Of a DNA stretch of 21,099 nt, positions 301 to 21,099 are shown piece after piece. The first letter of the stretch is position 1, and every line of letters begins with the position of its first letter. Under the pieces are notes generated by a model. It did no database searches. It was not told where the DNA came from and was given only the letters and a program-made list of their open reading frames with translations. A program made the position numbers and the translations under genes. The stretch is from positions 5,524,695 through 5,545,793 of the forward strand of contig JBOZIK010000001.1 of assembly GCA_051453625.1 (NCBI GenBank). The letters are read 5' to 3'. This DNA is from Welwitschia mirabilis. Taxonomy: Eukaryota.

Positions 301-1857
301 TTAGACAATGATAGGGAGTAAGTCCTCCTCATCGAGGGGAACCTTCAAAACAAGAACTTCTATCATCTTTATAGTTATGTCTAAAGATCTTTTATGTAAT
401 TTTATCCATTACCCATTAACCTTATGAATTTCTCAAGTCTCTAAGTCTAAAATCTCAACTAAGCCATTAAGACACACTTTTTGTACAAGGTGAGAACCTA
501 ATTATTTTGAGGTTAACTTATTATCCAAAAGATGAACTCTAGTGTTGTATAATAAGACAAGTTAACTAGATTCAAATTTTTTATGAAATATCTTTTTATC
601 ATGTTTGAAATTTGCTTAGGCTTTATGGATTAATTGATGATGTATGGCATGAGTTCTTTTTTATTAAAATGTTGTAATTGGTCTAATATATATTTAAAAT
701 TTTTATGAAAATCCACAAGCTTAAGTTGATGGGATACACAATAAGAATTATAATATACATCAATAGGTAATACACAAACTTTATTGTACATAAGTTTGTA
801 AGGTGAAAAACCAAAAGAAGTATGTCAAGTAGTATGATAAGCCCAAAGTAAATATTTAAGTTTATAAGTAAAGATAATTTTTTATAATATTTTCTTTATT
901 CTTCTCTATTAGCATTTTTAGCTTGTTCATTAGTTTAAGGATGATAAGCACAATCTATTCTATGTTATATACCAATGGATAAATGAAGTTTCTTAAAAAT
1001 CTGATTAATGAAATGAGTACTCTGATCAATAACGATAACTCTAGGAAAACTAAATCTATAAAAGATATGAATTTTAAGAAAATTATAAATAGTTTAGGCA
1101 TTATGCAAAGAAGTGGGTTTAGCTTTAATCCATTTAGTCACATAATCCATAGCCACTAAAATGTAATACTTATCAAAAAAAGATGGATGAATAGGATCTT
1201 TGCAATCAATACCCCAATAATCAAAATGCTCATACTCAAGAATAAGTCTACGGGGCATTTCCTATGAACAAACAAGACTACCATAACATTGACAAGAATT
1301 ACATCTTCTAGCAAAATCAAAGGAATCATGAAAAATAGAAGATCAATAAAAACTAGAATGAAGGATTTTTCATCACTTTTTTATATCCACTAAAGTATCC
1401 TTCATAAATACCACAATGACAAAGATGAAAGATTTTAGGCATTTCCTAATTAGGCATATATTTTTTCATAATTTATTCTTTACACCTATGATACAAATGT
1501 GGTTTTATCCACTCATTGTCACCAAATCTATAGAGAAAATATTTGTGTTAATTATAAGTCTAATGTTGTGGTGTTTTCATGGTCATAAGATAATTAACAA
1601 TGTTTACATACCAAGAAGGAGGATAAGAAGAAGATACAGTAAAAAGCTAATCATCAAGAAAGGAACATCAATGATAGAATCATCTAAAAGAGAAGAAAAA
1701 TAAGATAAATGATCGACAACAAAATTATGCTTCCTTGCTTTATCTATGATGGTCAAGTTAAATTATTACATAAGGTGAATCCATTTAATCAAATAAGAAC
1801 TAAAACCTTTCTTGATTATGAGGTAACAAATGGCATCATGCTTAGTGTAAACATTGG
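301..1857 (-). pseudogene. Element A pol, 3' part: RNase H C-terminus and integrase (HHCC zinc finger, catalytic core, GPY/F-type tail), with many stops and frameshifts
   Basis: Hand translation of the - strand gives: VYTKHDAICYLIIKKGFSSYLIKWIHLM..FNLTIIDKARKHNFVVDHLS (~1855-1705, cf. VYTDHAALKYLL..RLIRWILLLQEFDLEIKDKKG.ENVVADHLS); HLCHCGIYEGYF...RCNSCQ (~1430-1290); EMPRRLILEYEHFDYWGID...YILVAMDYVTKWI...RFSFPRVIVIDQSTHFIN (~1260-1005); AYHP*TNEQAKNANRE (~950-905); WAYHTT*HTSFGFSPYKLMY (~845-785); LVLLYNTRVHLLDNKLTSK*LGSH..KVNG (~565-412). A probable stop is at 303-301. Confidence 0.93.
1853..1857. repeat. Left copy of the 5-bp target-site duplication (ATTGG)
   Basis: It matches ATTAG at 9978-9982 with one G>A transition. 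The 5-bp length is supported by the restored RNase H frame. Confidence 0.88.
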
Positions 1858-2603
1858 TGTTACGGTGTTTTTTTACAACATTATATTGATTTTGATTTTC
1901 TAATTTTGTTTAGCACCTCTTTTTGGTATTTTAGGTCTTAACCTTTTGTCTATAACAAGGTCTAAATACAAGGCAATATTTATTTAAAAAGTATAACTTA
2001 TTTTTCTACCTATAGAATCATTAAAAAAAAAAATTGTACACATGTAATTAAGTTTTAATCTAAGAATTCTTACGAATTAACAATAATAAGTAATATCCTA
2101 GCAGTTCTCAGAAATGATATATAAATGATCAATCAAAATATTTAGCCGAAAAATAAGATGCTAACTATCCAAATGAATTCCCTGTTTAATGAAAGTACAA
2201 AGAATATAAAATCTAATGGTTGAATTTAATTGAAACACATTTTGACTAAAAGCTTTTAAATAAGACAAATTAATAAATAAGATTTCTAATTCCCCCATTT
2301 TTTTTTTAGAAATTGGATTGTATCTAAACATTTTTTTTAGAAAATTGATGGAAATAGATTGATTCAAACAAAAAATTATTTGTAGAAAAAAAAGGATAGC
2401 TTAGGAAAAAAAAAACAAATTTTATATTTGACGATGCATGAGATTTTTTTTTTTTTTTTTTGAAATAAAAGAAAGGAGTGATATAAAACCCTCTCAGATA
2501 AGTATTTGAATGGCTCTTAAAACAAAAGCAATACAGATGACATAAATTAATAGTTTTTTTTTAAAAAAAAGGTTATAAACTTGGATGATATTATTGCAAT
2601 TTC

Positions 2604-3470
2604 GTGTTTTTTTTAATTGTGGCGTCCTTCCCTGCTAATGGCGTTCTAGCATCGATGGCATATTTTTTTTTTTTTTTTTGTCGTCTTCTAGTCGTTGCTT
2701 CTCAGTGCCTGGTTTCAAGCTCCCGATGCTTTCCTCGGATGTTTCCCTTCTCACATGTTTTTTCTCTGTGTTTTTATTCTTTGCTTTCCCTGTTTCTACC
2801 GCATTGTGCTTTTGTGTCCGTTGGTGTTTCTCTTTGGTGCTGTCACTTTGTGTCTGTTCCTTTTGGCGTCCCTTTTGATCTTTTGCTTCTGATCGCTTCT
2901 CTTTGCCTACGTTTGGCCTCTCACTTTGCTGTCTCTCCTCGTTGTGTGCCTTCAAACATGTGTTCGCTGCGTCTATTTCTTGATGATAGCCCATTGTCTT
3001 TCTGGCTTTACAGATGTTCTATTCACTATGATTTCCCTGTTATTTGATCTAACTATAAATCTTCCTCTATTATTGTGTTTAATCTATTTTTACTGTTTAT
3101 GATCTCTCCTTGGGTATCCTTCAGATTTTGCCTGTCGTGCCTCTATGTCACTACCGCCTGTTACTAATGCCGTTCCCTTCGATTTTTTGTCTGCCATTCT
3201 GGCGTTCACTGTTATTTTTGCTGCCTCTGTCTTTTTGGCATTATTTGATGCCATTCTCGCTGTCAGATCACTTCCTCTTACTATCTATTTATGATTTTGG
3301 CGTTGTCGCTGGTTTCTTATGCCTAGTATTTTGATGTGTCTTTCCTCCTTTTTATTGCACCTCTTTCCATGATCTCCTCCTTCTCTTTTTACTCGGTGCC
3401 TTAGCGTTCTTCTTTGGTTGCATGTACTCGCTGTTTCCTGAATGTTTGATAATCTCCCCCATTCTTGTTT
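2604..3470. repeat. Pyrimidine-rich, CpG-retaining low-complexity tract with recurring TGGCGT(C/T)-type motifs (left arm of the 8.1-kb insert)
   Basis: The + strand has a strong T/C skew, with repeated TGGCGTC/TGGCGTT words at ~2620, 2639, 2864, 3200 and 3298. The skew explains the stacked spurious ORFs here. Confidence 0.6.
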
Positions 3471-4884
3471 ACTGCTCAATCCCTTAAACATTGCCAGCAA
3501 TGGACTTACTAAAGTGGCGCATGGAAATACTCAGTAATTCTCAATAAAGGAGTGACATTTGATGGGTGAATGAGATCTGAAGAATTTGGATCTGCTATCC
3601 TTGAATTCCATTTTACTATTTCTATTCAAAGGAGCATTCAAAATTTGAACGGCAAATCTGGTGGATTATACATGGATAGGCTCTGTTGTGAAAATTGCTC
3701 TTACAACTCCTTGAACTTGGAGCAACATCTTCTAAGTTTATCCCTTATGTTTATTTTGAGCTAGATTTCAAGAAGGTTATAACCAAAAAGAATGCAGTTA
3801 TTGATTCTCAAGAGCACATGAAGATTAGTAACATAATTTCTGTCAAACCATTTCACTTAAATTAAGAAACATTGAAATTATGGTGTCAATCTCCAATGAC
3901 CCTTCTTTATCCTCCGAGATATAATCTTTCTTCCATTTATAGTTCTCACCCTTGAAAGAAAGCGATGCCTTCACTTCCAAGTTTTGTTGCCTCACTGGTC
4001 AGTTGTCTTAGTTTTTAGAATCACCAGCATCACTATATCTGTCGCTTCTAGAAAGCTGGATTCTTGCGGTACCAAGGGAAGCAAATCCTCCAAGGGAAGT
4101 GGATGCAAAAAACTGAGAAAGAGCGAAGGATGTTGAGGTTCTTATCGTATAAAGCTTTTGGTAAACATCTTTGCCAAACAATGAACATTTAAAGATGAAA
4201 TAGAAACTTTTAAATAATCCTGCAAAATGAAATCTCGAGAATTTCAACTCGTAATGACTATTTTTAAATGGGAAAATAGATGCAACGTGGCTACGACGAA
4301 AAAACCAACAAACAGTCGTGCTTTAGAACAGCTCCATAAAAGCTTCGGCGGAACTTCGCAAGCACTAGAATTTCGATAGTTCTAGAGAAAGAATCAGATG
4401 CAACTTGATGGGTCTCCTGCCTTACTGCTCAACCACTCTATGATATGGTATCTACCCTCTCTGACCATTACCATAGATGCTACATTTTGTCTTCTGTGGA
4501 TGCTTACTCGTAGCTAGCTTAGCCCATGTGGATGTCAATGTCTTTTGTTGAGTTGGCCTTCTATTATGTAGTTTGAAATGCTACCACCCTCAACTAAAAT
4601 GCTCTTTTCTACATGTGGGCGTGCGTCCCATGACTGCATGTTCAGGTGTAAGACAACCAAGTGTGGTTGTTAATCTTGTTTCAACTGAGTATTTCTAGTC
4701 GGGAATAAGCCTAACAAGACTAAAATCAAAGACCTTGATCTTCAGATCATCTCCAATAAGGATATTGAGCAGTTTAATGTCCTAGTTAATGCAACTTTTT
4801 TCAGATGGACGACTATACAGACATTTAACTCCTCTGGTGACATCCAAGGCAATGGTGAGTCTCTTGGATTAATCTACAACTTTC

Positions 4885-4892
4885 TATAAATA
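4885..4892 (+). promoter_or_regulatory. Candidate TATA box upstream of the RING copy
   Basis: CTATAAATA matches the plant TATA consensus and lies about 400 bp upstream of the ATG at 5292. This is a motif match only. Confidence 0.35.
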
Positions 4893-5291
4893 TACCTATT
4901 TTGTGAATCTCTTGAGAGAAGTAACAGTCGAGGTAGATCATTAAACATCCAAAAATCTTGAAACATTGGTAATTACCTTGATATTTCAGAGTTTTATTTT
5001 CTCTGACAACATTTTACTGGTCATTCTAAAGAAAAGACAAGCACAAATAAAAAATCAGCTCTCAAAGTAAGTAGATCTAGGAGTTTAATCTGCCCTTTTC
5101 TGTGGCAATGTTTACTTGCTTAGTGAGATAGGCTTCATACATTTCCACCATGGGATGTGGGTCCTTGTCAACTAGTTCTTCATATTCATCCCTAGATGTA
5201 AAAGACGAGACTTAATTGTTCCTTGTTTGTTTGAATTTAATCTTTTATATTCTTTGATTCTCTGTTCATTGGAAAAGTTTCACAAATAAAG

Positions 5292-6267
5292 ATGGGGTTG
5301 GAGTGCACTAGAAATTTGCCTTCAAAGGGAGATCTTCATCTGCATTATCCAAAATCTAGGGATGCCTCCAAGAAGAAAAAAAGTCAACAGGCATGTGAAT
5401 CTAAAACAGAGCAAGCTGGATGTCCAGAGGGAGCAATGGCTATCTCAGGAAAAGAATAAGATTTTCAGACAGCAACAGAATCAGAATGATAGCATGCATC
5501 AGGATATAAAAAATGCCTTAAACGATACCAATGGAGACTGCAATAGGCAAGGAAATGATCTTATTCAGAGAGAGCTAGGAGATAGTATTTTTAATAGCAG
5601 CTTTTTAGACAAGGATCCTAGAGTCTCAAAGAGTTCTATTGAGGAGGATGAATGATGGAGTTCCAAAGACAATAATAACAAAGGACAGGGATCTAATGGC
5701 AGCCAGGATGAAGAACATAAAGAACGTGATCTTGTTTCTGACGTGGAGGACGATTGGGAAGCAGTGGTTGATGCTCTTAATGTTAAAGAACCAAAATCTC
5801 CTTTGAAATATTTGAATAAAGGAATTAGAGCCATAATATCAATTGAAAACCAACACAGATCCTATTTTTCAATATAAGATGGGATGCTTAGTTCAGAGTA
5901 TAAGATCAAATCACTAAACCCTCCAAATCAATCCTCTAGATCATCAAATTGCAGGGAGACTGGATGATACTTGTAGGCCAAATTGTTTATCAAAGCTCAC
6001 AATACTTTTCCATCACAATCATTCAGACATTCTTGGAATGATTGGAGTAATTCTTCTACAGGGTCCATTGAAACAAATGATCCTTTGTCATGCCCTATTT
6101 GCTATGAGGATTTAGATCCTACCGACACAAAGTTTTTACCATGCCCCTGTGGATTTAGGCTATGCCTCTTTTGCCACGATAGGATTATGGAGCAAGATGC
6201 TTGGTGCCCAGGTTGTAGAAAGCGATACATTCAAGGAAGCTATTGTAAGCTTACCTCGTTCCTTTAG
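5292..6267 (+). pseudogene. Disabled, intronless copy of a plant NOT4-like C4C4 RING-finger protein (short family with a REQWLSQ N-terminal motif and a C-terminal RING; putative E3 ubiquitin ligase)
   Basis: Family motifs occur in order: SRDASKKK/KVNRHVNLKQSKLDVQREQWLSQ, EDDWEAVVDAL (~5746-5778), RLDDTCRPNCLSKL (5957-5998, cf. AWRPDDAFRPQSLPNL), and RING CPICYEDLDPTDTKFLPCPCGFRLCLFCHDRIMEQDAWCPGC (6091-6216; C-x2-C-x13-C-x-C-x4-C-x2-C-x10-C-x2-C). Lesions are a +1 frameshift in the A7 run at 5376-5382, TGA 5653-5655, TAA 5875-5877, and two compensating frameshifts near 5954 and 5998. Confidence 0.9.
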
Positions 6268-6628
6268 CATGTCATTGAAGACTTAGTACATGCTGCATTA
6301 TGCTCTATTTTTCATCAATCTTGCATGGATTAAATTCGTGCATATAGACATTTACACACGTTTAGGAAGTACAAGGGCTAGTTTAGCATTCTTTGGTGCT
6401 TGTGGATACAAGAGTCATTTAGGTGGTGAAAACATTTTATGTTTTCATACATATCCTTTTGATAAAGAGAGTCAAGTCTATTTCAATGTGATGAAGTTGC
6501 TTAGAGGGCTTTTATCTCCATCCTAAGATCAAAATTAGAAGAATTGTATTTATGTTGTTTTCTTAGTGTTGTCCTTATGTAAGAAGTACATGTAAGTATG
6601 TAAACACTCCTTAGAGTTTTTAAGAGAC

Positions 6629-6658
6629 AATAAATTGAGTTATCATGAAAAAAAAAAA
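6629..6658 (+). other. Polyadenylation signal plus genomic poly(A) remnant of the RING copy
   Basis: AATAAA at 6629-6634 is followed 13 nt later by A11 at 6648-6658, about 380 bp after the stop codon. Confidence 0.6.
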
Positions 6659-7189
6659 TTAATATTTACATACAGTTGCATTAGTATTCGTGATTGATTA
6701 CCTCAAAGTCATCTTTCACATTTACTCTAAATTTATTCAAGACTTCTTTTACTTTTCAAGTTAATTGATTACCTATTAGTACTTAAAATCCTTTTATCAT
6801 ATGCTCTTATTTTGTTATCAGTCTCACTTCTTCTATCTCCCATTTCATTACCTCCCATTTTTCACATAATTGTTTCAATTCATTACTACTTCATTCATCC
6901 ATGTAATTACCCCACCTATTATTCTCTCATTAGCTCATTCATAATCTTTAATCATTAGCCAATCATGTATTCATTATCTATTCCATGCATATGTTTAGGT
7001 TTGCCTCAAGTTACATCTTCATCATTTAGTTGAGTCACGCCCAATTATCTCAATTTTTATTTCACAACTTGTCTTGTAAAGTTTTTGATGTAAAGCTTAC
7101 CCTTTTGCCTCACATCAAAAAGGGGGCAAACTGTATGCAATTATTTTTTATTTTTTATTTTTTTTTAAAAAGGAATACAAAACCAATTT

Positions 7190-7301
7190 TAAGAAGTAAG
7201 GCCAATTATGTACTGCTTACTATCCTTGAGTAAAACTTGAGACAAACTCAAGACATATCACTCTAAGAAGTAAGGCCAGTTAGGTACTTCTTATTATCCT
7301 T
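7190..7301. repeat. Two 38-bp direct repeats (7190-7227, 7264-7301; 34/38 identical) separated by a 36-bp spacer
   Basis: The copies read TAAGAAGTAAGGCCAATTATGTACTGCTTACTATCCTT and TAAGAAGTAAGGCCAGTTAGGTACTTCTTATTATCCTT. Confidence 0.85.
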
Positions 7302-8137
7302 AAACATCAATGGAAAAAAATTACCCCCTTTTATTACAAGTCTCCAATGAACTTTGCTTTGTTAAAAAATATAAATATAATAAATTAAAACAAATGCAAA
7401 GGCCAAAACGAGAGAATATCAATTTCCACCCAGGCACACCAGTTCTGAAACAGCCTCATTGATAAGGCTACACACATAAACACAGCACATTACATACTCT
7501 GCCATGCATGCTTCAGTGGTCTTGGACAAGAAGCCGCTTCTGTTTTTGTTATTTGGAAAGGCTTTCAAAGGCCTCATAAACCTGAAGGCCGTGCATTTGC
7601 TATGTTTTGTTTCATTTTCTTCTCTATCTTACGTTTGCTTGGCTTTCTCAATTAGACTTTACCAGAAAGGGCCGCTTGCCGTTTTTTGGCGTACATTTCA
7701 TCATTTAACGAGGATTTGCATAGCTTATGCCAGGATGTTATGGTTACTTTGAGATATCTTCCACTTTCCTTAAAATTTTGTATTTTCTAGCTAACGATGC
7801 ATGGATGCTTTTCGATTTCCTTTGATTTATGAGAGTATTGTATCTGGATTTGTTTTTCCTTTGTTCTAGTTTTAATTTTTTATTTCTTAAAGAATTCGGA
7901 GCTGTATCGATTTATTTTAGAGACTCTCATACTTTTTGTAGCTAACGCCTTAGTGCTCTTCGACTCCTTCAGAGTCTAGAGAGCCTTCTTCAAATTTGTT
8001 CTTCCTTTTCAGTAGTTTGGAAGGCTTCAAAGCCAACTCCAAATTCTAGACTATGGATTTCTTTTGTCGATTACATATTTTTGGTCTCCTTTATCCAAGA
8101 GCACAGAAAGCGGAGTTTTCAAATAATTTACAGTAAC

Positions 8138-8959
8138 ATGGCTGCTAGCTTCTCAAGAAGAGATCTACATGATCTTTTTGTAAGGTCTATTGATTTTTTT
8201 CAACATTTTGAATCTCGCTCCGGTTGAGGAAAAGGTTTATGAATGGAAAAGGCGGTGAAGAGTGAGATATACAAGAGTTTTCTTCAATGGGAAAGCCGAA
8301 AGTGTCCTGGGGGCACAAAAATATGCTTTGGAAGGAAATCCGAAGGTAATTGCTCGTTCTTCAGAAAGCCAGCGGTTCAAGCCGACAGGGGCGTGGTCAG
8401 AGCAGAGAAGGAAATTCTACTTGATAATCATAAATCCATTATTATCAATGGCAACAAGCACAATATTTGGTCTTATTCATCACAGAAAAGAAATGAGGAA
8501 GTGTAGAATGGTGTAGTAGGTGATTCCCTAAGGAAAGTCAGTGCCTTTGAGGAAGTGAACAACAGGATGGATGTAGAAGAAAAGGCACAGATGATTGTAA
8601 ATTTGGAATGTAACATCAAGCTCCGATATCTGAGGCATTTTCTTCAAGTATTATCCAAGAATTCTGCCAGTAAACGTCATTCCAATGTATAACTCATACA
8701 AGATAAAGTAGGAGATGATAGAGCTAACACTAATGCTTCAGATTTGCCATTTGTGGGAGGTGGAGCAAGATCTGATAATGGAGAAAGAGACGAAAATGGA
8801 TACGGAGACTCACCGACGGTATGCCAAAAATTAAGGAAGATTAAAACGGAAGAAGTGATGTATAAAACAACAGCAAAAAAGAATCAAAAAAGACGGGGAG
8901 AAAAAGACAGAACCACAACGCAGAGAGTAAGGACCCAGAGAATTCCAGAGATGTTCTAG
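8138..8959 (+). pseudogene. Cryptic decayed ORF (~273 codons) of unknown family in the right arm of the 8.1-kb insert
   Basis: The ATG is in an AACATGGCT context. One frame joins the track ORFs 8243-8506 and 8744-8959, with only four internal stops (TGA 8225, TGA 8240, TAG 8504, TAA 8690), each one C>T change away from CGA, CAG or CAA. No recognisable domain. Confidence 0.45.
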
Positions 8960-9240
8960 AATGTAGTAAAGCTATGGCAAAACGCGCATCAGGGAGAATG
9001 GAGCAACAACAAAACATGCATCAGGAGAGGCTAAGAAATGCACAAAATAATAGCGCGTGCAAGCGAACAACACCGGAACACAGAGATAAGAAATAGCGGA
9101 CAACGCTAACAGGTGACAACGATCAGGAGGAAGCAGAAACCTCAAATGCATCAGAGCAAAACGGAAGGGTAATTAGAGGCAAAATAACACCACAAAAAAG
9201 GCTAAGTAGAGCTGAAATAGGAGAAGCGTGGAGGATACAA
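8780..9240. repeat. Purine-rich, CpG-retaining low-complexity tract with recurring GCATCAG motifs (right arm; compositional mirror of 2604-3470)
   Basis: The + strand has a strong A/G skew, with GCATCAG at ~8985, ~9018 and ~9148. Confidence 0.55.
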
Positions 9241-9977
9241 AATCTATGTTTTTTCAGGAAGAACTGTACAGTTAAAGAAGAAACACAGCAAAAACATGGT
9301 AATTGCCTAGAAAAGTTATGGTAATTTGACATTTTTAAGGATATGTCAAGCACATTTGTAGGAATCTACAACACAGGAGAAAAGGAAACAGACGAGATGA
9401 TTCAGATATCTTCTTGATCTCATCTCTTAGGTTTTATAGTCATTGAAACAACAAACCTTTTGTTTTTTATAAACTTTTTTCCCCTTATTTTTGAGTTTGT
9501 TCGAACATGCTATTTTTCTTATTAAGAATCATAGATTCATAGAGTTGTGTAGTCATTGAATATTCTTCAAAATGTTCTAAATCTTTTTAATTTCTATTAC
9601 GATCTTTTTTTACATCACGTGTTAGAATATTTAGATATTTAACACTAAAGTTTTTAAATTTGCAAATAGCCTATTTTATATTTGAACTTTTACTTTAAAA
9701 AAAAAGGGATTTTAAGAAGACATCATTTAATTCTTTCTTTTTAGTTTATTTTCTTTTATTTTACCTTTTAAATGTATTAGAAATTTTTTTTATGATATTT
9801 GTTTGGAAAATGGATCAATGTAAAATGAACGCATTGTTGTATCTTTACGGCTTATTCTGATAAAGGGTCAAATTTTAAAACATCCTTTTTGTTCTAGTTT
9901 TAATACAGTAACGTTAGCTTCATTAGAGAAAACCTAGAATTTGGATAAATTTTAAAATTGCGAAAATAGTAGCAACA

Positions 9978-9982
9978 ATTAG
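9978..9982. repeat. Right copy of the 5-bp target-site duplication (ATTAG)
   Basis: It directly follows ...GCAACA and matches ATTGG at 1853-1857 with one transition. Confidence 0.88.
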
Positions 9983-12900
9983 TATGAAAGCTTAAAAGAT
10001 AATGTCTAAAAGAATCAAAGTAAAAGATAATAGCTAGCATCTCTTTCTCTATTGTGGTATAATTCATTTGAGATCTAGACAAAGATTTGCTAAGATAAGA
10101 TATAACATGGAAATCATTTTCATAATTCTAATAAAGAATCCCATCTACAACAAAATTACTTAAATCACACATGATTTTAAAATCTTTTTCCTAATTAGGT
10201 TCCATTACTATAGGAGTATAAGAAAGTTTTTATTTAAGCCTATCAAAAGCAAGTTGACAAGATTCGTTTCATTTAATTTTAACTTATTTCTCTAGTATTG
10301 AGTAAATAGGTTTACAAATATTAGCATAATCATGAATAAACTAACGGTGAAGAGCAAAATAACTAAGAAAAGATCTAACCTATTTAACATTTATAGCAGG
10401 ACTTAAGTTTTCAATAATACCAGCTTTAGAAGTGTCCATCTTAATTCTCTCTTTTGAGATATGGTAATGTAAAAGAATTCCACTTTCTATAAGAAATAAA
10501 CCTTTTTTCCAACTCAAATGTAGGCCACTAGAAATACAATAATCTAAGACTTTTTCTAATCAATCTAAAATTTATTAAAATGTTTCAACATAAATAAAGA
10601 AGTCATCCATAAAAATCGCAATGGAATCCTGAAGCATATCAGAAAAAATTCCCATCATAGCATGCTGAAAAGTACTGGGAGCATTACAAAGTCTAAAAGG
10701 CATGGGTTTAAAAGCAAAAGTGTCAAAAGAAGAAGTAAAAGTGATTTTGGCTTGGTCTTCACTAGCAATGAAGACCTAGTTATAATTGCTATAATCATCA
10801 AGAGAACAATAAAAGCATGACCCTAAATCCTATTAAGAATCTAATCAAGAAAAGGTAAAGGACAGTGATCTTTTTCAGTTACCTTGTTTACTTTTTAAAA
10901 GTCTATGTACATTCTCTATTTTTCACACATTTTAAAAACTACTATTAGGAAGTTAACCCACTCACTATCATCAATTGAATAAATGATTCTAGCATCCATT
11001 AATTTTATGATTTCATCTTTAATAATTTCTTTAAAGGTTAAATTAAGTTTATGTTGGGGTTTCCTCATAGGTTTAGCATTTTCTTTAAGGTAGATTTTAT
11101 GTTGAATAATGGAAGTGGATATGGTTGTTAAATCATAATGGAAACAAGTAAACACATTTACCTTAGATTGTAGAAGAGAGACTAGACTTGAGTCTTATTA
11201 ATGAGTAAGTTTTTAATTAATGATCAAAGGTTTATTTAGGTTACTATTTAGGAAAATGTATTTTAGACCACTCTCTAAAGGTTTCAGGTTTAGGTATAAA
11301 CTTAGATTTTTATGTTTTGTAAAATTTTCAAGAAAATAAACTATCATCTTAGATTGTCATCTGAACGTTAGTATGGATGACCACTATTAAAATAAGAAAT
11401 CTTAGGTCTACTAAATTCTTAAACTTTTACACAGTTGACAGACTTAAACTCTCTATTCTTTAAATCATAAAATTTAGTTTTCAGATGTTCTAAATCAAGT
11501 TGATCATAAAAAAACATATAAGTTATTTACTCTTATTAGGTTATTAAACAATGTTGGTTCATAAAACATGGATCATCTTTTCTCAAGTGGATGGTGCTAT
11601 AGAAATAGAGTTAGCCTAATTTCTTCTTTTACACTTAAATCATTATCTAAATCATTTTTAGCCACGTTAAAAACTCTTATTACAAACTTTCTATTCCATA
11701 AATGATACTCCATTAAACTAGTTCTTGTATCTATATTACAGTGAACTGTTGCACAGAAATCTCTAATTAGAAGTAAATAATATCTACCATTGTGCTTAAC
11801 TTTTATAACTACAACATCAATGGGATAAAAGCTTCCTCTATCTAAATAACCAAATCCTTAATCATAATTAATGGTTTCTTCATAGATGAATCAACTAGTT
11901 CTAAGATAATTCATGTAAGTTCTACTCTTTTTTCCAACTCAACTCTTTGACAAACATGCAAGGGCATAATGTTGATACTAGCTTCAATATCTATCAAGGC
12001 TTTCTTAATCATATGGTTNNNNNNNNNNNNNNNNNNNNNNNNNNNNNNNNNNNNNNNNNNNNNNNNNNNNNNNNNNNNNNNNNNNNNNNNNNNNNNNNNN
12101 NNNNNNNNNNNNNNNNNNNNNNNNNNNNNNTATTTTTAATTTTTTATAATAAAGTCTTTTTATAGCTTTGAATATTTTGGATTTTCTTGCAAAAGTTTCC
12201 AAAATGATAAGTTGATGCTCATATTTTTCATTAAGGCTTTTAAATGATCATCAAAAACAGGATTTGTGTTAAGTCTATAAAACCATGGCGTAGGGGGTTT
12301 CTTATGTAAAGAGTTTTTATTTTTGTTTTTTAATGGATAAGAGAAACAATTGTTTTGTAATATTTCTATGTCCTCTTCTTTATCATTTTTTTTCACTTTA
12401 TGATGTGAAAGCCTTATGAGTAGGAGGAGTTATATCATTTTCACTTCTTATTACCACCTTATAATCTTTTATATATTTGTTTAGATTTGATAAAGATTGA
12501 GTGGCAAGAGACCCTTATGGTATTTAGTTGACAAGCATAGTTTATTATAGGATACCCACAAGGTTTTCAATGTTGATGTTTCACTTTTTAATGTTTGAAG
12601 TTATCTTTTCTTATGATTTTCTAAACTCCTTAATGAAATTCTTAAGAGGATCACTTTGGCTTTAGTAGTTGGATGAGCTCACTAAGTTGTCTGAATTGTT
12701 AGATTGGAATTTTATGTTCTCAAATCTATTCTTAAAAGGTTGAAATTTAGGATGGTTTATTTAAAAATTTTTGAAGTTAAGTTGTTCACTTATCCTAGGC
12801 TAAAAGTTATTATGATTTTAAACTTGTCTTTGATTTTGGTTCTGGTTATAGTTTGAATACCTCTGGTTAAAAGCACATACTTACTCATAAATTCTCTCTT

Positions 12901-13880
12901 TATAAGTTAGAAGCAAAGGAAATTCTTTGATAATATGATAATTATCCTCATATAAATCACAAGTAGGAACTACAACTTCACTCTTTTTGGTTTCCACCTT
13001 TGCATCTAGAATCATTTATGTGTATTTTTCTAAGGTTGAAGTAAAATCCTTTATGACATTTATTAGTTTATTTTTAACTCTTATTTCATTTTTCTCATGT
13101 TTCAACTCTTTTAGATCTTTAATAATTTGGCATACTATTCAATTTTATTTAGGTGAGGGTTTAGGCCATGTCTAACTCACTTCTACCAAGTCTTCTAATA
13201 CTTCTCAAGCATCTTTTAAGATTTAATTCAATAAGATACCTTCACATGAAAAATCTACAAATTGCTTTATGTGAATATTTACTCTACTAAAAAAGTAGTC
13301 TACAAGTTTTACCTATGAAAAGGCATCTACAGGTTTTAAATGTAAAGCAACAAAGAATCTCTTATAGACAGAGGCATAGTTTTCATTGGCCATTTGTTAG
13401 AAGGTGGTAACTTATTTCTTACATTTTTGAATGGTGGTTTCAGTCATAAATCTATTGATAAAGGCTTTCTAAAATTGACTTTAAGAGTTTAAGAATCTGT
13501 GGAAAATCATTTTAAGCCATAGTTTTTCTTTATCTTTTAAAGTGATGGGGAAGATGACCATGTAGGTTCTATCACTTATGTGTTTTTTACTATTTCTAGA
13601 AATGAGGAATAACTATTCTATATCAGTAATGTGTTGTAAAGAATCTTCATTGGATTTACTACTAAAGGTAGGATATGCATTTATATTTTGAAGATCAACA
13701 TCATCATCAAGAGGTAGGTCAAATAAGGTGTGGATTTCATGTTTTTTTTCCTACTATGAGATCTTTAAGGATAACACGGGCATTGGTATAAATAAGAGTT
13801 GTTATGAGGGTTCCAATAATAAGGGATAAATTTGGTAAGATAGGTTGTTTTTGCTTTTATAATGAGGTAGGCATCATTTA
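9983..13880 (-). pseudogene. Element A gag-pol, 5' part: gag, decayed zinc knuckle, aspartic protease, reverse transcriptase and RNase H N-terminal half (start coordinate approximate)
   Basis: Gag: YPTFSSKSNEDSLQHI...IFPITLKDKEKLWL...KAFINRF (~13680-13450). Knuckle remnant: CDLYEDNYHIIKEFP (~12960-12918). Protease: ALIDIEASINIMP...LELVDSS (~12000-11885). RT: SIIQHKIYLKENAKP...SEWVN (track ORF 10916-11155) and EDQAKITFTSSFDTFAFKPMPFRLCNAPSTFQHAMMGIFSDM..IFMDDF (FMDD at 10613-10602). RNase H: QMNYTTIEKEMLAIIFYFDSFRHYLL (~10070-9990). Confidence 0.93.
12019..12130. other. Assembly gap (112 N)
   Basis: A run of N between gag and protease of element A. Confidence 0.99.
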
Positions 13881-14133
13881 AAATGAGAAACTATCATCTA
13901 AACAACTCTTTAAAACATTCTTGTTAGCAATATCAGACTCTACAAAAATGAAATTAGATATTGCAAGAAATTCTAAATCTTACATAACTTTATTATCTTT
14001 ATCTGATTCAATTTCTATATCTATCAAACTTTCTTAGATATTTTTCATAATAAATAAATACTCTCTCTAGTATGTTTCTTTTTTAACAGATTTTACCATA
14101 CATGCTCAGTTTTGGATGCATAAAGCACCGTCC

Positions 14134-14233
14134 NNNNNNNNNNNNNNNNNNNNNNNNNNNNNNNNNNNNNNNNNNNNNNNNNNNNNNNNNNNNNNNNNNN
14201 NNNNNNNNNNNNNNNNNNNNNNNNNNNNNNNNN
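14134..14233. other. Assembly gap (100 N) flanked by a 44-bp duplication
   Basis: 14090-14133 and 14234-14277 are 43/44 identical and directly abut the gap. Confidence 0.97.
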
Positions 14234-14696
14234 ATTTTACCATACATGCTCAGTTTTGGATGCATAAAGCACAGTCCCTATAATCGTCTGGATAATAGTC
14301 TAGATGATAAAACACAGAGACCACAAAAAAAAGGAAAAAGAAGAAAACAAAAATGAAAAAATGATAGATACTAAAAAACTCTAAAAGTAGACTATTACCC
14401 ACCTGAGCTATCTAGATGACAAAGGGAATGATGGAAAAAATCCTAAAACTTTTTGATAGAAAACTAAAACAGAAAACTCATGGCATAGAGGCTATTGTTA
14501 CCTAACTCTTTATTATAGAAAAAATGAAAAATTTTATTTGAAAAATCGAAAACTATTTATTTAAAAAATAGAAAACTAACACTATGAAAAGGAAAAACCT
14601 ATACTATTACAGATAATGATACAACACTATTGTAGGTAAACACTCAAACCAAAATACTCATTAGAGAAATGAAAACTCTTAAACTCTAAGTTGCTT

Positions 14697-14714
14697 TCCT
14701 TGGTAATAGTGCCA
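14697..14714 (-). promoter_or_regulatory. Primer-binding site of element A (deaminated Athila-type, tRNA-Asp)
   Basis: The - strand reads TGGCACTATTACCAAGGA against the Athila consensus TGGCGCCGTTGCCGGGGA; all six differences are G>A or C>T. It lies 3 nt inside the LTR end. Confidence 0.82.
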
Positions 14715-14717
14715 AGT

Positions 14718-15768
14718 TGTTGTGATGCATATTTATATAATGTTAGTCCATAGTAAAGTTGAATCTTATTAATCATAAATATAATGCATAAACACAACAC
14801 ACTAATATAGATGAAAGTAACTTGAATGTCGTAATCCAACAATGGCCAAATTAAGAAATAAGAGAGTCGCTTTCTACAAAGAAATGCTTGTACTCTAATT
14901 CATAGAAACAACTTATAATAAATGAAAGTAAAAGTATAACACACTTATGCAAATCTAATATACAAAAGAAAACAATAATGCACCTAAATAAACTAATTAA
15001 GCATGACCTTGATAAAGGTTTCCTTCATAACCTATATCACTAGAAAAACTCTCACTGGATTATAAGCAATATAAGCTCTGAGGGTGGAAAATAATCATAC
15101 ATTAAAATCAGAAAAAAGAAATATTTTGTATTAGGTTGTGAACCACATCTGTATTACAAAGTAGCCACATCTCAATGGAGAAAACACTATTCAATACCAA
15201 GGAAAACATCTCTCTGTAAACAAAGATAAGAAGAAGTTTAAGATGAGACCACTATTTATTAACACACAAGCACATAAGAAAATAGATAGAAAGGCATGGG
15301 TAAAATTGTAATGATCGCATTAGAAGAAACAGATGCATACATAGTAGAATTTAGGTGAATTTTTAGTGTAAACATTATAATAGTATCATCCGACAGGTTA
15401 TCTGGCTCATAGAAGAGATGATGCCATCTCATATTAATCCACATTAGCTACCAGCTTATTTATAGTCAGCATTTCTATTGACACTATTTTCTCAGTCATC
15501 TATATAGTTGTCCAGACGATGACATTGATGATGGCCTTCGACAAATCTTTAATTAGTGCATCAGCCTTAACATTTTTCACTTAGTTATCTCAGAAATGTA
15601 AATTATTCATAATTGTTCAAAATGTTATAAATCATTATGGATATTGCATGTTTCCATCTCTTTCACTTCAGCTCTCCATTATATAAGAAATCAAGCATTT
15701 ACCTATCTATTATCTTATAAAACCACTCAGAACACCCTATGAAATATTCTTAAGTTAGTAGTGCAACA
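14718..15768 (-). repeat. 5' LTR of element A (~1,051 bp)
   Basis: It has TG...CA ends (TGTTGTGATG...AGTAGTGCAACA on +). The inner end abuts the PBS and aligns with the terminus of the related LTR at 20957. Element B integrase sequence (FSGHYS) resumes immediately after 15768. Confidence 0.8.
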
Positions 15769-16263
15769 ATTTTAGTGGCCATTATTCTACAAATAAAACT
15801 ATCACCAAGATTTTATAATTATGTTTTTATTAGTCTTTAATTTTTAAAGATGCATATATTTATTGCAAATACTATGAAAAATGTTAAAAAGTAGGAAACC
15901 TCATAAGAAGAAACACAATGCCTCTAAATCATATTTTCATATTAGAATCTTTTAATATTTAGAGAATTAATTTTCAAGGCCCTTATCCTCACTTAAATGA
16001 AACATTACTACATTCTCATTTATGTAAACTATGTGATTAAATGAGTAGAAGATTATGCATGTAAAAATAATGATGCCCAAATAGTAGTTACATTCTTTAA
16101 AGAAAACATCTTAACAACATTTGGTTATCTTAGGATTATAACTAGTAATAGAAGCACCCACTTCTATAGCAAAGTACATAACAAACTATTGGCCAAATAT
16201 GGGGTTACTCATAAAGTCTAAATACATTATCTCCCAAACTAGTAGATAAGTTAATGTCATTAA
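15769..16263 (+). pseudogene. Element B integrase, N-terminal piece (zinc-finger remnant and catalytic core)
   Basis: FSGHYSTNKTITKIL*LCFY*SLIFKDAYIYCKYYEKC*KVGNLIRRNTMPLN...FNI*RINFQGPYP...YILIYVNYVIK*VEDYACKNNDAQIVVTFFKENILTTFGYLRIITSNRSTHF...LLAKYGVTHKV...QTSR*VNVIN, matching the Athila/Tat integrase consensus. Confidence 0.9.
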
Positions 16264-18035
16264 CACCAGGTACTGATCGTCACCTTGGTAAGCCATTGCC
16301 TTAATAGCTAATTAACCAGATGTAAGACCCTCCTTAGATGGATTTATCCTTTTCCCTCCTCAGCCTATAGGATATTAGAAACCATTTATGGCTCTTATTC
16401 CCCTTCCAAGGGTAGGTTCTCATGCATTACTTATCCATCTACCACGAGAAACACCACTTCCCATTTGGCTATACATTTTTATAGATAGAAATTATGATTT
16501 TATATTCTTTTGTTAAATGAATTATAAAACATTGATATGCTATGTTATAGGGAAGTCTTTCATGATGTTTTAGAATGAATATAGAACCCTGATTCCTAGA
16601 TTTCAAACTCCAAGTTTATCTTTAAAGAGATAATTAAAGTGTATTAGGATCTATAATAGATTTTATTTGCAAAAAACTAAACACTATGACTTCATTAATA
16701 AGTTCTACTAGGTCTCATGCTATATAATCTAAGGTTCTAGATCCAAAAACATTGAGATAGAATAATGCTTTTTTCAAGTCAAATACTTTACTATGTAAAA
16801 GTTTCATTGGGGGTAAGAAGCATTCGAATATTGATAAATTGATTTAAAGTTAGTAGAATTAGATCCACTTTTCTAGGATCATAAGTCGAAGCAATAAAAA
16901 CAATATTTATTTTACTAAAAAAATATTCTCATCTTAGTTCTTCTCCATAAACTCAATTAGTTACAAAGAAACATATTCATCTTAGAGAATTTATTTATTT
17001 TTAAGGCAGAAATGAAATCAATCTTTTGTTTTATATCTATAGGAGAAGTGTAATATTTTTCTTTCTTTTCTATCATGGTAGAAATACAATCAATCTCTTT
17101 GACTATGGTATAAATATTAGTCCATGCCATTTGATCAATGCTTGGGATCCATAATATGCAAGGATACATTGCTTCTACCATTTTCAAAATCTGTCAAAAT
17201 TAGGGGAAAGTTTTATAACTAGAAAATAATCAATCTAAATTGACTTTTACTAAAGGAACATAAGAGTCTACTATTAGACTTCAAACCAAATAGTATCAAC
17301 TAGTTTTCTAAGGACCTATCAGCAAAAATCCCTTTGAAAAAGGATGATCCTAAAAATAAACGAGTTTTTCTAGCTTTAGAAAATATGTTCTGGTTAGATT
17401 TGGTAATATTATGATAAAAAGCAATGAAGATACTTTATTCAGGTGAACAAAATAAATTAAACTTATAATTCATTAGATCTTTTTGAAAAATTTCATTAAA
17501 TATTATAAGTGTAAAAACCCTAGCTCTTCCATGGTTTGATAACCTTTGTAGATAGGATGCTCGTCGGTCAAATTTGATTCAAATTAGGAGAGGTCTTTTG
17601 CTATTCTTAGGAAGGAGGCTTAGAGCATTAGACTTCCTGAGGCTGCTGTCAATCATGTGATGCAGCAATACTAAGCCCTTATTTTCTACAAATCTACAAC
17701 CCCTATTTTTTAGCAATGCTCTATGCTGGGTGTCAAGCATTCACTTAACGCTCTCATATGGAGATCCTATTTTAGCAATCAAAGAGATAAATCCCTAGGC
17801 TTTACTAATATGCCTTCTCCATTATGTTCTTCTTGAGGAAAACTCTATGTTTTCTAGGTAATTTGCTACTCTCTTAGGACATTTCCTCCCTAGTTTTTTA
17901 TTTTAGTTGATTTAAAGTGACTTATTCTAGGTTCAATTTATTCTTTTTTTATAAGAGTTTATTTTATTATCCTCCTCTAGTAATGAAATGGTTTTAATTT
18001 CATTCAATTAAAAAAAAAGACTTAAATTTTTAATG
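16264..18035. mobile_element. ~1.77-kb insertion splitting element B integrase; possibly a decayed CACTA-like element or a LINE ORF1 (DUF4283-like) fragment
   Basis: Integrase stops at VNVIN (~16263) and resumes at NQEIKKI (~18038). The ends read CACCA...TAATG (cf. CACTA...TAGTG), with TAA on both sides (16261-16263, 18036-18038). That it is an insertion is secure; the class is not. Confidence 0.6.
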
Positions 18036-18615
18036 TAAACCAAGAAATTAAAAAAATCGTATAGAAAGTAGTAAGTTTAACTAGGAAAGATGGGTCTTAT
18101 AAGTTGAACGATGATTTATGGGCCTACAGAATAGCTTATAAGATACCCTTAGGAATGTATCCCTTTAGGCTGATCTATGGTAAGGTGTGTCATCTCCCTA
18201 TTGAGTGGGAATACAAAGCTTATTGAGGAATTAAAAACATGAAATTGGACTTTGAAATAACAAGGAAATAGTGAGATATCTAATTGAATGAGTTAGATGA
18301 GATTAGGAATGATACATACAAGAATAGAAATATTGATAAGGATAGGATGAAAAAATGACATGATCAAAATATCTTAAGAAAAACATTTAAGAAGGAAGAA
18401 CTAGTTTGATTTATAATTTAAGGCTACATTTATTTCCATGAAAACTAGTTTCTAAATGGAAAGATCCTTATGTAATAAAACAAGTATTGTCAAATGATGT
18501 AATCCTCATTAAAAACCTAAAAAATCATTAAGCTTTTAAAGTTAATGGTTACCACCTTAAGCACTTTCATTCATCTCTTCCATCCATCTATAAGTTTGTG
18601 AAATTATTAACCTAG
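18036..18615 (+). pseudogene. Element B integrase, C-terminal piece
   Basis: [64 protein letters not shown]...LNELDEIRNDTY...YNLRLHLFP*KLVSKWKDPYVIKQV...FKVNGYHLKHF. Confidence 0.92.
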
Positions 18616-20000
18616 GTTAATAATCCTTAATAATTAATTTAAAATAATAAGTTATCATTATGTTATCATAAGTTTATATTAAAATTAAGTTTATGTGTTT
18701 TAATTAAGAGAAAGTATGCTTAGTTTGAGTTATTTTATTAAGGCTAGCTTCACTTGAAGTTTTTAATTTGACCAAAGGAAAAAAATGGATAAAAGGTAAA
18801 ATCTACCTTTAGGAAGTACTCTTGATTTTCAAGCATTTATGGGATTAATATTAATTCTTAATTGGGATAATGAGGTAATGACCTTGATTTGTATTTAAAA
18901 CAAAAGAAAAAGATACATATGAAAAGAAAAGTCAAAAAGAAAATATATCTTTTTTCTAAAAGCACATTTTATTTAATCAGTATCACTAAGTTTAGTTAAC
19001 TACATCAAGGATGTGGACACACATTGGTAATGTAGCTCTAATGATCTATTTATGGCATGATCAACTGCATTGGGGCTATGATCACTCCTTAGCAATGTAG
19101 CACTGATTTCTTCATGAAGAAAATGTTTAACTCCATTAGAAAAACGATTCTTTAACATTGGATGCTTAATTAGATAAAAATTCTTGAAATAGATTTAATC
19201 TTAAGGGTGGAAAGGAAAATGAAAAGATAAAAAGAGGGGAATTAAATATTTCATTATGTTTCTTTTCCTTAACTCTTATACCTAGATTTTGCTTATTGAC
19301 TTTTAAAATTTCATGATTTTACTTAGTGGATACCTTGCTTAAATAATAACTTTATCCATTATATAAAAAATAAATTTTACCAAAAAAATTCAATAAAAGG
19401 GCCATTAGCTTAGGGAAGTTATTTCATTTGTTCATAGGCTGAGTTACATTTCTCTTCCTTATCCATTACCATTTGCATTTCATATCCATTTCATGCATAG
19501 TCATAATTCATTTCCTCACTTTACCTTTATTCTATTTTCATGAAGAATAGAACATTGTAAGATACACATGTTTCTATCACAGGCTGAACTTTTTCATCAT
19601 GTTTTCACTAAATAAAAAAGAAAAAAACAAAATTGAATTATTGGTAGGTAGAAAATATGAGATTGTGTTTAATAGTTTTTCTTCACATTATGGCATTTTG
19701 CATTTTTTCCTTTTTGAATTAAAAAACTTGTGTTGAATAATTTCTAGAACTTTAAATTTATTTCTCAAAAGTCGATTATAATTTTTCCTATCTTAAAAAT
19801 TTTGAGGACAAAGTCTAATTTTGGTTGGAGGTGTAGCATCCACTCTTTTTTTTTTTTTTTTTTGAAAAATCATAATGTTAATGGCTTATTTTTCTTTAAA
19901 ATTGATCAAAAAGTTTTCAAAATTTATATCATCTTATAAAATCTTGAATAATTTTCCTTAGAATTTTTCCATGCTAATCATTCTTTATCATGCCTTTTTT

Positions 20001-20036
20001 TTACTAAGGGTCTAGCAAAAGTCTAGTTAGGTGGTG
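20001..20036 (+). promoter_or_regulatory. Athila-type pre-LTR motif and decayed polypurine tract of element B
   Basis: TTACTAAGGGTCTAGCAAAAGTCTAGTTAGGTGGTG|TGAT resembles the Athila TTGCTCGAGGACGAGCAA..AAGTTTGGGGGTG|TGAT junction. A related internal copy (TTTGAGGACAAAGTC..GGTTGGAGGTGT) is at ~19801-19834. Confidence 0.65.
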
Positions 20037-20956
20037 TGATAACATGTAAAAATTAACATTTAGATCATGTATTTTAGGTTAATTTAGCTTAGAAAATATA
20101 TTTAATTAATCACTTTTATCATGAAATTATGTCTTTCCTTAGTTTTATTGTAAATTATGAAATTATGCACTTTTTTATGAAAAACTTAGGTACTTAACAT
20201 CATAATGGAGAATGATGCCAAATTAGCTTTAAACTACCATGCTTGACTTATCATTGAATAACATGTGGTAGGAAGTTATGGGCCCTATCAATTATTGCAT
20301 CATAGTTAGCTAAGATCCTTAAAGACTTGATATTGATATGGTGGATATGTAATGCTAATGTGACAAACACATAGCAGTGAGTTGATAGTGTAGTGCTAAT
20401 AGCATATGGTGGTGGTATTAATACAAATGGTGCTAGTATCAGTTGGAAGTTTTTACACAAATGGCCAAATGTTGAAGGAATCATGATAATTTTCTATCAA
20501 ATGTCACAAAATAAAACTTTCACCTAATAGGATAGGATGAAGCTCTAATCAAATGATAAATGATGAAGTGCTACAAGAAAAAGATTCCATTTAATGATAT
20601 AAGATAATAAATCTTTACTTACACTTAAATATATAAGATAAAATATAGTTTTATAATGCTAAATGATGAAGATTCTATTTAATACTACCAGACAGAGTCC
20701 ACTCATCTCACTTATTAGTACAAGCTAAGAAACCCATTCATCACCCTCCTTAATTTTACCTATAAAAGGCCTTGAAGACCCTCATTATAACATGACTTCC
20801 TCAATGGTGAAAGCTCCATTATACCTTAGCATGATCTTCAACATGATGCCTTGCTAAGTTTCCTTTAGAGTGAGCTAGTCTCAAGGATATCTTAAGGAGT
20901 TTGTACTTGATGATGCCTCTTTTTTATAATGTAAGGTAATTTCTTTTATTTTATAT
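20037..20956 (+). repeat. 3' LTR of element B (partial; interrupted at 20957)
   Basis: It begins TGATAACATG directly after the PPT-like motif, has an AT-rich U3, and has a candidate TATA box (TATAAAA) at 20761-20767. Confidence 0.7.
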
Positions 20957-21099
20957 TGTTGTGGTGTGAATTTATGAAATCTTGAAGTCCTTAGGTAAAC
21001 CTGTAAATCATATAACTTATAGAAAAACACACGCTAGTATAGACGGGAGTTCACCCGAATGTCGTAATCCCAACAAAGGCACTAGGCTCAGAGTTAGAG
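20957..21099 (-). mobile_element. Terminus of element C, a younger LTR related to element A's LTR, inserted in B's LTR; continues beyond the window
   Basis: TGTTGTGGTGTGAATTTATGAAATCTTGAAGTCCTTAGGTAAA aligns with TGTTGTGATGCATATTTATATAATGTTAGTCCATAGTAAA at 14718. CACGCTAGTATAGACGGGAGTTCACCCGAATGTCGTAATCCCAACAAAGGC aligns with ~14798-14846. Confidence 0.82.

Follow-up and report, generated by a model that had tools for sequence, protein, structure and literature searches.

The locus described here raises the question of what kind of insertion leaves the end marks of a retrotransposon integrase around 8.1 kb of DNA that has neither a pair of long terminal repeats (LTRs) nor a recognizable transposase. 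It lies in a stretch of 21,099 nucleotides from contig JBOZIK010000001.1 of Welwitschia mirabilis (the whole stretch is called the window below), which is AT-rich (GC mostly 0.22-0.40) and reads like a nest of decayed plant transposons. Within the window an insert of 8120 bp splits the RNase H region of a very high-copy, decayed Ty3/gypsy element. In the initial annotation the insert had been taken as an 8.1-kb gene-carrying vehicle: the integration footprint and the gene cargo withstood analysis, while its status as a single unit was undermined by a nested insertion with its own 10-bp duplication, by internal stretches at single-copy depth and by a RING gene piece that appears to be RNA-derived. 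As a whole, the insert resembles a decayed insertion made up of layers more than a new gene-moving element, and the explanation favoured here, with a probability of roughly 0.4, is an insertion of LTR type, similar to a solo LTR, that acquired its middle layer by layer.

The host element was identified by a Pfam scan with matches in three of the six frames given: the order of reverse transcriptase, RNase H and integrase core on the minus strand is that of Ty3/gypsy elements. The RNase H match stops 12 bases from the insert, which thus cuts this domain near its end. The summed contig depth of the host flanks was approximately 9,000-29,000 in three DNA runs (X1, X5 and X7), and the depth inside the insert was 0.6-72, excluding the two end bins and a nested repeat. 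More than 125,000 contig pieces were aligned over the window, and the numbers of contigs given below refer to a small sample listed from these alignments. At the left junction the host sequence ...AAAC ATTGG is followed by TGTTACGG..., while at the right junction the insert end ...GCAACA is followed by ATTAG TATG.... The two copies of the 5-bp duplication agree at four of the five positions, the single mismatch being G/A, and the termini of the insert (TGTTAC...GCAACA) are inverted over the outer 6 nt with one transition between them. Among three removals made in silico, both 8125-bp removals (the insert plus one of the duplicates) kept a single reading frame, while removal of 8120 bp shifted it. 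Furthermore, public contigs from the three DNA runs fuse approximately positions 1852-1855 to 9978-9987, skipping 8125 bp (three contigs, all in X7), 8127 bp (1, 2 and 2 contigs in X1, X5 and X7, respectively), 8129 bp (1, 1 and 3) or 8131 bp (3, 1 and 0), and some of these joints have a lone 5-mer followed by TAT between the joined parts. These contigs are uninterrupted copies of the host family located elsewhere.

To what extent such a footprint might arise by chance was estimated from 400,000 random position pairs drawn from the window. Ends of the type TG..CA were present in 0.31% of the pairs, 6-nt inverted ends with at most one transition in 0.34%, and 5-bp flanks agreeing at four or more positions in 2.6%; all three marks coincided in a single pair of the 400,000. 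The integration footprint is real and not a chance combination. This bears out what had been proposed from the letters of the window, namely TGT...ACA ends with a 5-bp target-site duplication (ATTGG/ATTAG), an exact in-frame repair of the host RNase H on removal, and a joining of the outer ends in one integration event with an integrase-type footprint.

The same junctions can also be read with an 8-bp duplication (ATTGGTGT/ATTAGTAT) agreeing at six of the eight positions, which would turn the insert into a hAT-type element spanning 1861-9977. Both mismatches are G/A transitions, but one of them needs an A-to-G change in the left copy, where the host paralogues read TAT. Moreover, the ends at those borders share no inverted repeat and there is no transposase remnant in the insert, and a hAT origin is considered very unlikely. 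A false join of unrelated contigs during assembly is equally hard to credit: the window is indeed scaffolded, with N runs at 12019-12130 and 14134-14233, the second located between duplicated 44-nt flanks, but unrelated contigs joined in error would not lead back, with a 5-bp duplication, to the very codon at which the host copy is left, and runs from four studies contain 16-70% of the sampled words of 1300-10500. An outer insertion of the long interspersed nuclear element (LINE) type was rejected, since poly(A) was absent at the outer ends of the insert and neither of them has a tail.

No LTR pair or terminal inverted repeat (TIR) linking the ends of the insert was detected by a seeded repeat search or by blastn at word size 7, nor by alignments compared with shuffles that either tolerated transitions or used a purine/pyrimidine alphabet, the latter being insensitive to the C-to-T changes by which this genome decays. 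A sliding-window test gave no LTR pair either. The sole lead was a recurrence of the 5' end of the insert at 9595 with 19 of 25 positions matching; depending on which of three scoring schemes was used, between 42 and 195 of 1510 sliding windows ranked above the 383-bp LTR pair that it implies, which was rejected. A primer-binding site (PBS) motif of the initiator-Met tRNA type, the only type tried, was absent across the window at up to two mismatches, and with no LTR border to define its place no polypurine tract was assigned. In a six-frame Pfam search of the insert at E<=0.1 there was no gag, reverse transcriptase, rve or DDE family, and the only families found were zf-RING_4, zf-RING_2, Pkinase, PK_Tyr_Ser-Thr and Ribosomal_L34; neither an Rfam nor a tRNA scan had a match. 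When the two terminal sequences were searched for exactly in metagenome contigs, each returned 0 stretches, in collections that are not expected to hold this plant. The earlier statements that the insert has no LTR pair, that its terminal sequences do not recur internally, and that gag, reverse transcriptase, integrase and DDE transposase are missing are therefore upheld.

The end marks nevertheless point to a probable enzyme. Duplications of 4-6 bp are the norm for LTR retrotransposons (PMC6696364), and the 5-bp duplication of the insert falls within this range; taken together with TG..CA ends and inverted hexamers, it is the mark of an LTR-retrotransposon integrase. Since reverse transcription always rebuilds two LTRs (PMC13317346), a footprint with a single copy between its borders points to a solo LTR or to a remnant. 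With solo LTRs of Ty1/copia or Ty3/gypsy elements the insert shares the TG...CA ends, the short inverted termini, the 5-bp duplication, the lack of coding capacity and a site inside another retrotransposon. It differs from them in being 8.1 kb long as a unit, in containing four gene-derived pieces and in keeping CpG in its terminal blocks. LTRs are not known to reach 8.1 kb, while the two terminal blocks together amount to approximately 1.5 kb, which is an ordinary LTR size. Large non-coding LTR elements that rely on the enzymes of another element, such as large retrotransposon derivatives (LARDs), are similar to the insert in these respects, but they keep paired LTRs, a PBS and a polypurine tract (PPT) (PMC6696364), none of which is present in the insert.

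According to the favoured explanation, an integrase-type enzyme would have inserted DNA derived from an LTR retrotransposon, in a single event, into a Ty3/gypsy copy of far greater age, cutting the target with a 5-bp stagger and attaching ends that open with TG and close with CA. The AT-rich terminal blocks (approximately 0.8 and 0.7 kb) would be the ends of a low-copy repeat family and a solo-LTR-like remainder, while the approximately 6.6 kb between them would be a layered patchwork, in which one layer is directly visible, one was apparently mediated by RNA and the rest are presumed. A 652-bp repeat arrived afterwards with its own 10-bp duplication. The element has no coding capacity of its own, no transcription of it was detected, and it is inert. 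Three points of this account are inferred: the joining by an LTR-type integrase, the LTR nature of the terminal blocks, and the arrival of most of the middle only after the integration.

Other transposon classes fit less well, as had been stated for Mutator-like elements (MULEs), CACTA, hAT and Helitrons on account of their duplication lengths. The duplication lengths of MULE, CACTA and PIF elements do not fit the insert; MULEs and Pack-MULEs in particular need a 9-11-bp duplication together with long TIRs, neither of which is present. For Helitrons no duplication, an AT site and 5'-TC/3'-CTRR ends are expected, while the insert has a 5-bp duplication and TG/CA ends. Pack-MULEs, Helitrons and Pack-CACTA elements resemble the insert in forming small families and in carrying mosaics in which pieces of several genes lie in either orientation, but their duplications (9-11 bp, none and 3 bp, respectively) and end motifs set them apart.

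The cargo is a patchwork of at least four dead plant gene copies located on both strands (Table 1), and not the single captured host gene that had been suggested. The piece encoding ribosomal protein bL34 matched bL34 chains of the PDB with a best E value of 8.3e-6. The kinase piece was most similar to plant kinases in the PDB (best E 4.7e-9) over residues 115-237 of a 305-residue chain; its N-lobe is missing where the RING-related sequence starts, and a word search for relatives of this piece found none. The RING copy is colinear with a 349-aa transcriptome protein over residues 1-349, with 77% identity over residues 36-325; where the two align, the copy shows two changes of frame and three in-frame stops. 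Its nearest named relatives are gymnosperm proteins with 44-48% identity, and a search among longer proteins gave one match, at the RING domain and two short stretches (N-terminal and middle). The similarity of this copy to RNA reads continues to approximately 6600-6640 and stops at the AATAAA/A11. The full-length coding region followed by AATAAA and A11 indicates an RNA intermediate, and the RING piece thus looks like a processed, mRNA-derived copy. Among the features of a LINE-mediated retrocopy it has the colinear coding region, the poly(A) signal and the A11 tail, while a search for a duplication around it gave none of at least 7 nt. The DUF1639-family piece gave a single match among 1.84 billion representatives (E 1.5e-17), and the C-terminal DUF1639 domain was not found. 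At ten listed positions of 8248-8346, inside this piece, the X1 contigs carry the letters of an expressed relative instead of those of the window, and the X5 depth is nil; the own sequence of the window is absent from the contigs aligned there.

Table 1. Features of the insert and of the interrupted host element (positions are those of the window)
Feature	Position	Strand	Evidence or remark
Host integrase core rve	938-1222	minus	Pfam E 2.6e-8; left of the insert
Left target-site duplication ATTGG	1853-1857	.	Junctions, frame test, empty sites
Inserted stretch, TGT...ACA ends	1858-9977 (8120 bp)	+	Junction reading, frame test, empty sites, chance test
5' terminal AT-rich block	1858-2662	+	GC 0.24; CpG observed/expected (o/e) 0.69
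T17 run, border of the 5' terminal block and the GC-richer interior	2663-2679	.	
CT-rich block, GC 0.42	2680-3500	+	Bin 2846-3186 at single-copy depth
bL34 domain, complete, dead copy with in-frame stops	3884-4009	-	PF00468 E 4.6e-7; 30.1 bits against a cut-off of 25
Plant receptor-like or cytoplasmic kinase C-lobe, in-frame stops	4530-4915	-	Pkinase E 7.8e-5, below the curated cut-off
RING (zf-RING_4) gene, complete coding region	5292-6283	+	PF14570 E 2.5e-15
Poly(A) signal AATAAA (6630-6635), then A11 (6648-6658)	6630-6658	+	Signal and tail of the RING copy
Nested mid-repetitive block, 652 bp	6662-7313	.	10-bp direct repeat AAAAAAATTA at 6652-6661 and 7314-7323
DUF1639-family gene, first 136 codons	8243-8599	+	tblastn 47% identity over 136 aa
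GA-rich block, GC 0.40	8601-9254	+	
3' terminal block, AT-rich from approximately 9400	9255-9977	+	
Right target-site duplication ATTAG	9978-9982	.	Junctions, frame test, empty sites
Host RNase H RT_RNaseH_2	9990-10265	minus	Pfam E 9.8e-23, model positions 3-95 of 100; right of the insert
Host reverse transcriptase RVT_1	10494-10823	minus	Pfam E 2.7e-8; right of the insert

RNA reads from one oligo-dT run cover most of 3187-9324. Of these 1513 reads, one was at least 99% alike to the window, 35 were 95-99% alike, 529 were 90-95% alike and 948 were below 90%; the reads stem from related genes, and no RNA run was listed as containing the sampled words of the stretch. The differences between the window and the reads were biased: A>G was counted 179 times and T>C 183 times, compared to 55 for C>T and 66 for G>A, i.e., A or T in the window against G or C in the read was about three times as frequent as the reverse, which indicates that the cargo copies have decayed by C-to-T change. 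Loose ends of the RNA reads at 4152, 4737, 5407, 5462 and 6221 were considered as exon borders and rejected, as the consensus shows local divergence or small indels at these places.

The layering is directly visible at one place. The nested 652-bp block sits inside the A-tail of the RING copy, has a depth of 155-1640 (bins 6597-7278) and matches 16-25 contigs per run at 7005 and 7071; it entered later and separately, with a 10-bp duplication of its own. A normal-sized solo LTR inflated by later independent insertions, each with its own duplication, had been named as one of the pictures that would overturn an 8.1-kb unit, and this block agrees with part of it. The block has no TIR and no tRNA-like part, its 3' junction is A-rich, and it contains a 57-nt direct repeat (7190-7246 and 7264-7320) with hairpin-forming arms; it is possibly a repeat similar to short interspersed nuclear elements (SINEs) or another repeat mobilized by LINEs. 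The second line of evidence is depth: the bins 2846-3186, 7961-8301 and 8984-9324 have a depth of 2-8, i.e., approximately one copy, so that the 8.1 kb, taken whole, is not just another member of a multi-copy family of giant LTRs. At 2153/2154, 9530 and 9906, the positions listed for the terminal blocks, between 4 and 15 other contigs matched in each DNA run.

Several observations weigh against a layered middle. There is no convincing duplication or end signature around the approximately 6.6-kb middle, and the best direct repeats at its borders are low-complexity stretches of 9-11 nt at about chance level. The numbers for the interior, 1-9 contigs per run among the positions listed, come fairly close to those for the terminal blocks. 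Among the matches listed, contigs are colinear with the insert across junctions of the patchwork (4512-4945 at 85%, 4130-4485 at 89%, and 3935-4205), while other, longer contigs end at these junctions (4629/4915 and 4152/4404). Part of the patchwork must therefore be present at one or more other loci, as would fit a unit copied together with its cargo. Finally, old LTR sequence would not usually retain as much CpG as the terminal blocks do: the CpG o/e ratio of these blocks and of the outer interior is 0.65-0.85, compared to 0.22 in the RING copy and 0.12-0.15 in the host and the rest of the window. Neither this retained CpG nor the mirrored composition of the flanks of the interior is accounted for by the favoured explanation, and both fit a young or unmethylated DNA element a little better.

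The composition of the insert changes sharply at approximately 2600-2680, where the T17 run lies, and at approximately 9250-9400. The plus strand is CT-rich in the block following the left change and GA-rich in the block preceding the right one, each lying just inside an AT-rich terminal block. No sequence similarity was detectable between 2680-3500 and 8601-9254, and the CT-rich block had no protein family match in Pfam. A long inverted repeat formed by the CT-rich 2560-3560 and the GA-rich 8500-9450 was tried and rejected: the DNA alignment score was 38 against 32.4 +/- 4.3 in shuffles and the purine/pyrimidine score 26 against 29.0 +/- 3.6, while a six-frame protein score of 78 against 37.6 +/- 4.5 came from low-complexity, K/R-rich matches of approximately 25% identity outside open frames.

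The junction-crossing contigs, with a likeness of 85-94%, favour another possibility, namely that all 8.1 kb integrated together and the gene patchwork was present from the start, either as a solo LTR of a giant cargo-bearing LTR family or as an aberrant non-autonomous LTR-type element, and was copied a few times with its cargo. The bL34 gene is normally low-copy. In X1 and X5, however, the bL34 region matches 6-7 contigs at 4026, and no internal end signature of a later insertion was found around the middle, both in line with such a unit. There is also a precedent in gymnosperm LTR retrotransposons, which carry gene fragments, two or more of them in 13.7% of the host elements (PMC13477047). 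As in these captures, the insert has dead gene pieces, LTR-type ends, donors that are still expressed and C-to-T decay (PMC13477047, PMC13317346), but it differs from them by the absence of an LTR pair, gag, PBS and PPT, by pieces on both strands and by at least four donors in place of mostly one fragment. Template switching among packaged mRNAs would not be expected to yield pieces in both orientations, an element without paired LTRs is not producible by reverse transcription (PMC13317346), the 652-bp block came demonstrably later, and three bins are at single-copy depth. If the 8.1 kb were an LTR, it would also be longer than any known. Integration of the 8.1 kb as one unit is thus regarded as possible but unlikely.

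The short inverted ends leave room for a DNA transposon as well. A non-autonomous Pack-type element moved by an integrase-related DDE transposase (Ginger/GingerRoot-like) in a seed plant, with very short inverted ends, would explain the 6-nt inverted termini, the TG..CA ends and the short duplication, the AT-rich terminal blocks with CpG kept, the low copy number, the genic cargo in both orientations, and the somewhat larger number of contigs matching the termini than the cargo. GingerRoot elements described in PMC6839031 are 3.9-12.9 kb long (given also as 4-13 kb), have LTR-like end dinucleotides (TG...CA in 5 of 77 intact elements) and a short duplication, frequently carry gene fragments (22 of the 77), and have lost the transposase in the cargo-bearing copies. 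Their TIRs, however, measure 100-150 bp against 6 nt in the insert, and their duplication is 6 bp, rarely 7-8 bp, against 5 bp, so that a Ginger-like membership fails on two of the defining features. Their cargo keeps introns, while the RING piece looks mRNA-derived, and no rve-like or other DDE remnant was found in the insert. Among plants, the same paper reports GingerRoot only from bryophytes and lycophytes, with none detected in gymnosperms or angiosperms, while the relatives of the RING cargo are gymnosperm proteins. A Ginger-like origin is therefore improbable. The same low standing is given to the broader possibility of a mobile unit without LTRs or long TIRs on which an integrase-type enzyme reads only a few terminal bases, be it a Ginger/GingerRoot-like Pack-type carrier or LTR-less DNA hijacking a retrotransposon integrase; the junction-crossing contigs would then be sister copies produced by transposition.

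The patchwork by itself could have been made without any mobile element, by a staggered break in the host patched through synthesis-dependent strand annealing with filler DNA from several places. Unrelated gene pieces in both orientations, some single-copy stretches and the absence of transposon features are what such repair would leave, and filler carrying genes and accompanying a transposon insertion, i.e., a patchwork of unlinked, partly genic sequences at a transposon-type break, has been described in wheat (PMC3445842). On the other hand, precise TG...CA inverted ends and membership in a repeat family are not expected of filler: TG..CA ends and 6-nt inverted termini each occur in only about 0.3% of position pairs by chance, the terminal blocks belong to a repeat family, and a clean 5-bp duplication requires a 5-nt staggered cut. 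Filler DNA as the source of the entire insert is accordingly a rather improbable explanation.

The presence of gene pieces between LTR-type ends is in any case not new in kind: gymnosperm genomes hold on average approximately 400,000 gene fragments captured by transposons, with all major superfamilies involved (PMC13477047), and such fragments are thus very common there. What is unusual is the absence of a paired repeat around 8.1 kb, which layering alone may explain. If the insert is indeed a layered, solo-LTR-like insertion, it is another case of transposon nests that gather dead gene copies in a large gymnosperm-type genome, and an integrase footprint around a long stretch without repeats is then not necessarily the sign of a new vehicle. 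If, instead, the 8.1 kb moved as one unit, an integrase-type enzyme would be able to move LTR-less DNA, and this could place an integrase-related DNA transposon in seed plants, from which the sole plant superfamily of this kind described is reported absent.

Outside the insert, no Pfam family was detected at E<=0.01 on the minus strand of 12131-21099, where the upstream part of the host element (gag and protease) is decayed beyond recognition. Of the two N runs mentioned above, the second consists of exactly 100 N between 44-nt copies that are 98% alike (14090-14133 and 14234-14277), an arrangement suggestive of a scaffolding gap between contigs whose ends overlap. Finally, 21-56% of the sampled 31-mers of 1300-10500 were present in runs labelled as a second organism (B), compared to up to 70% in organism A, indicating that the same insertion, or a near-identical copy of it, occurs under another species label.

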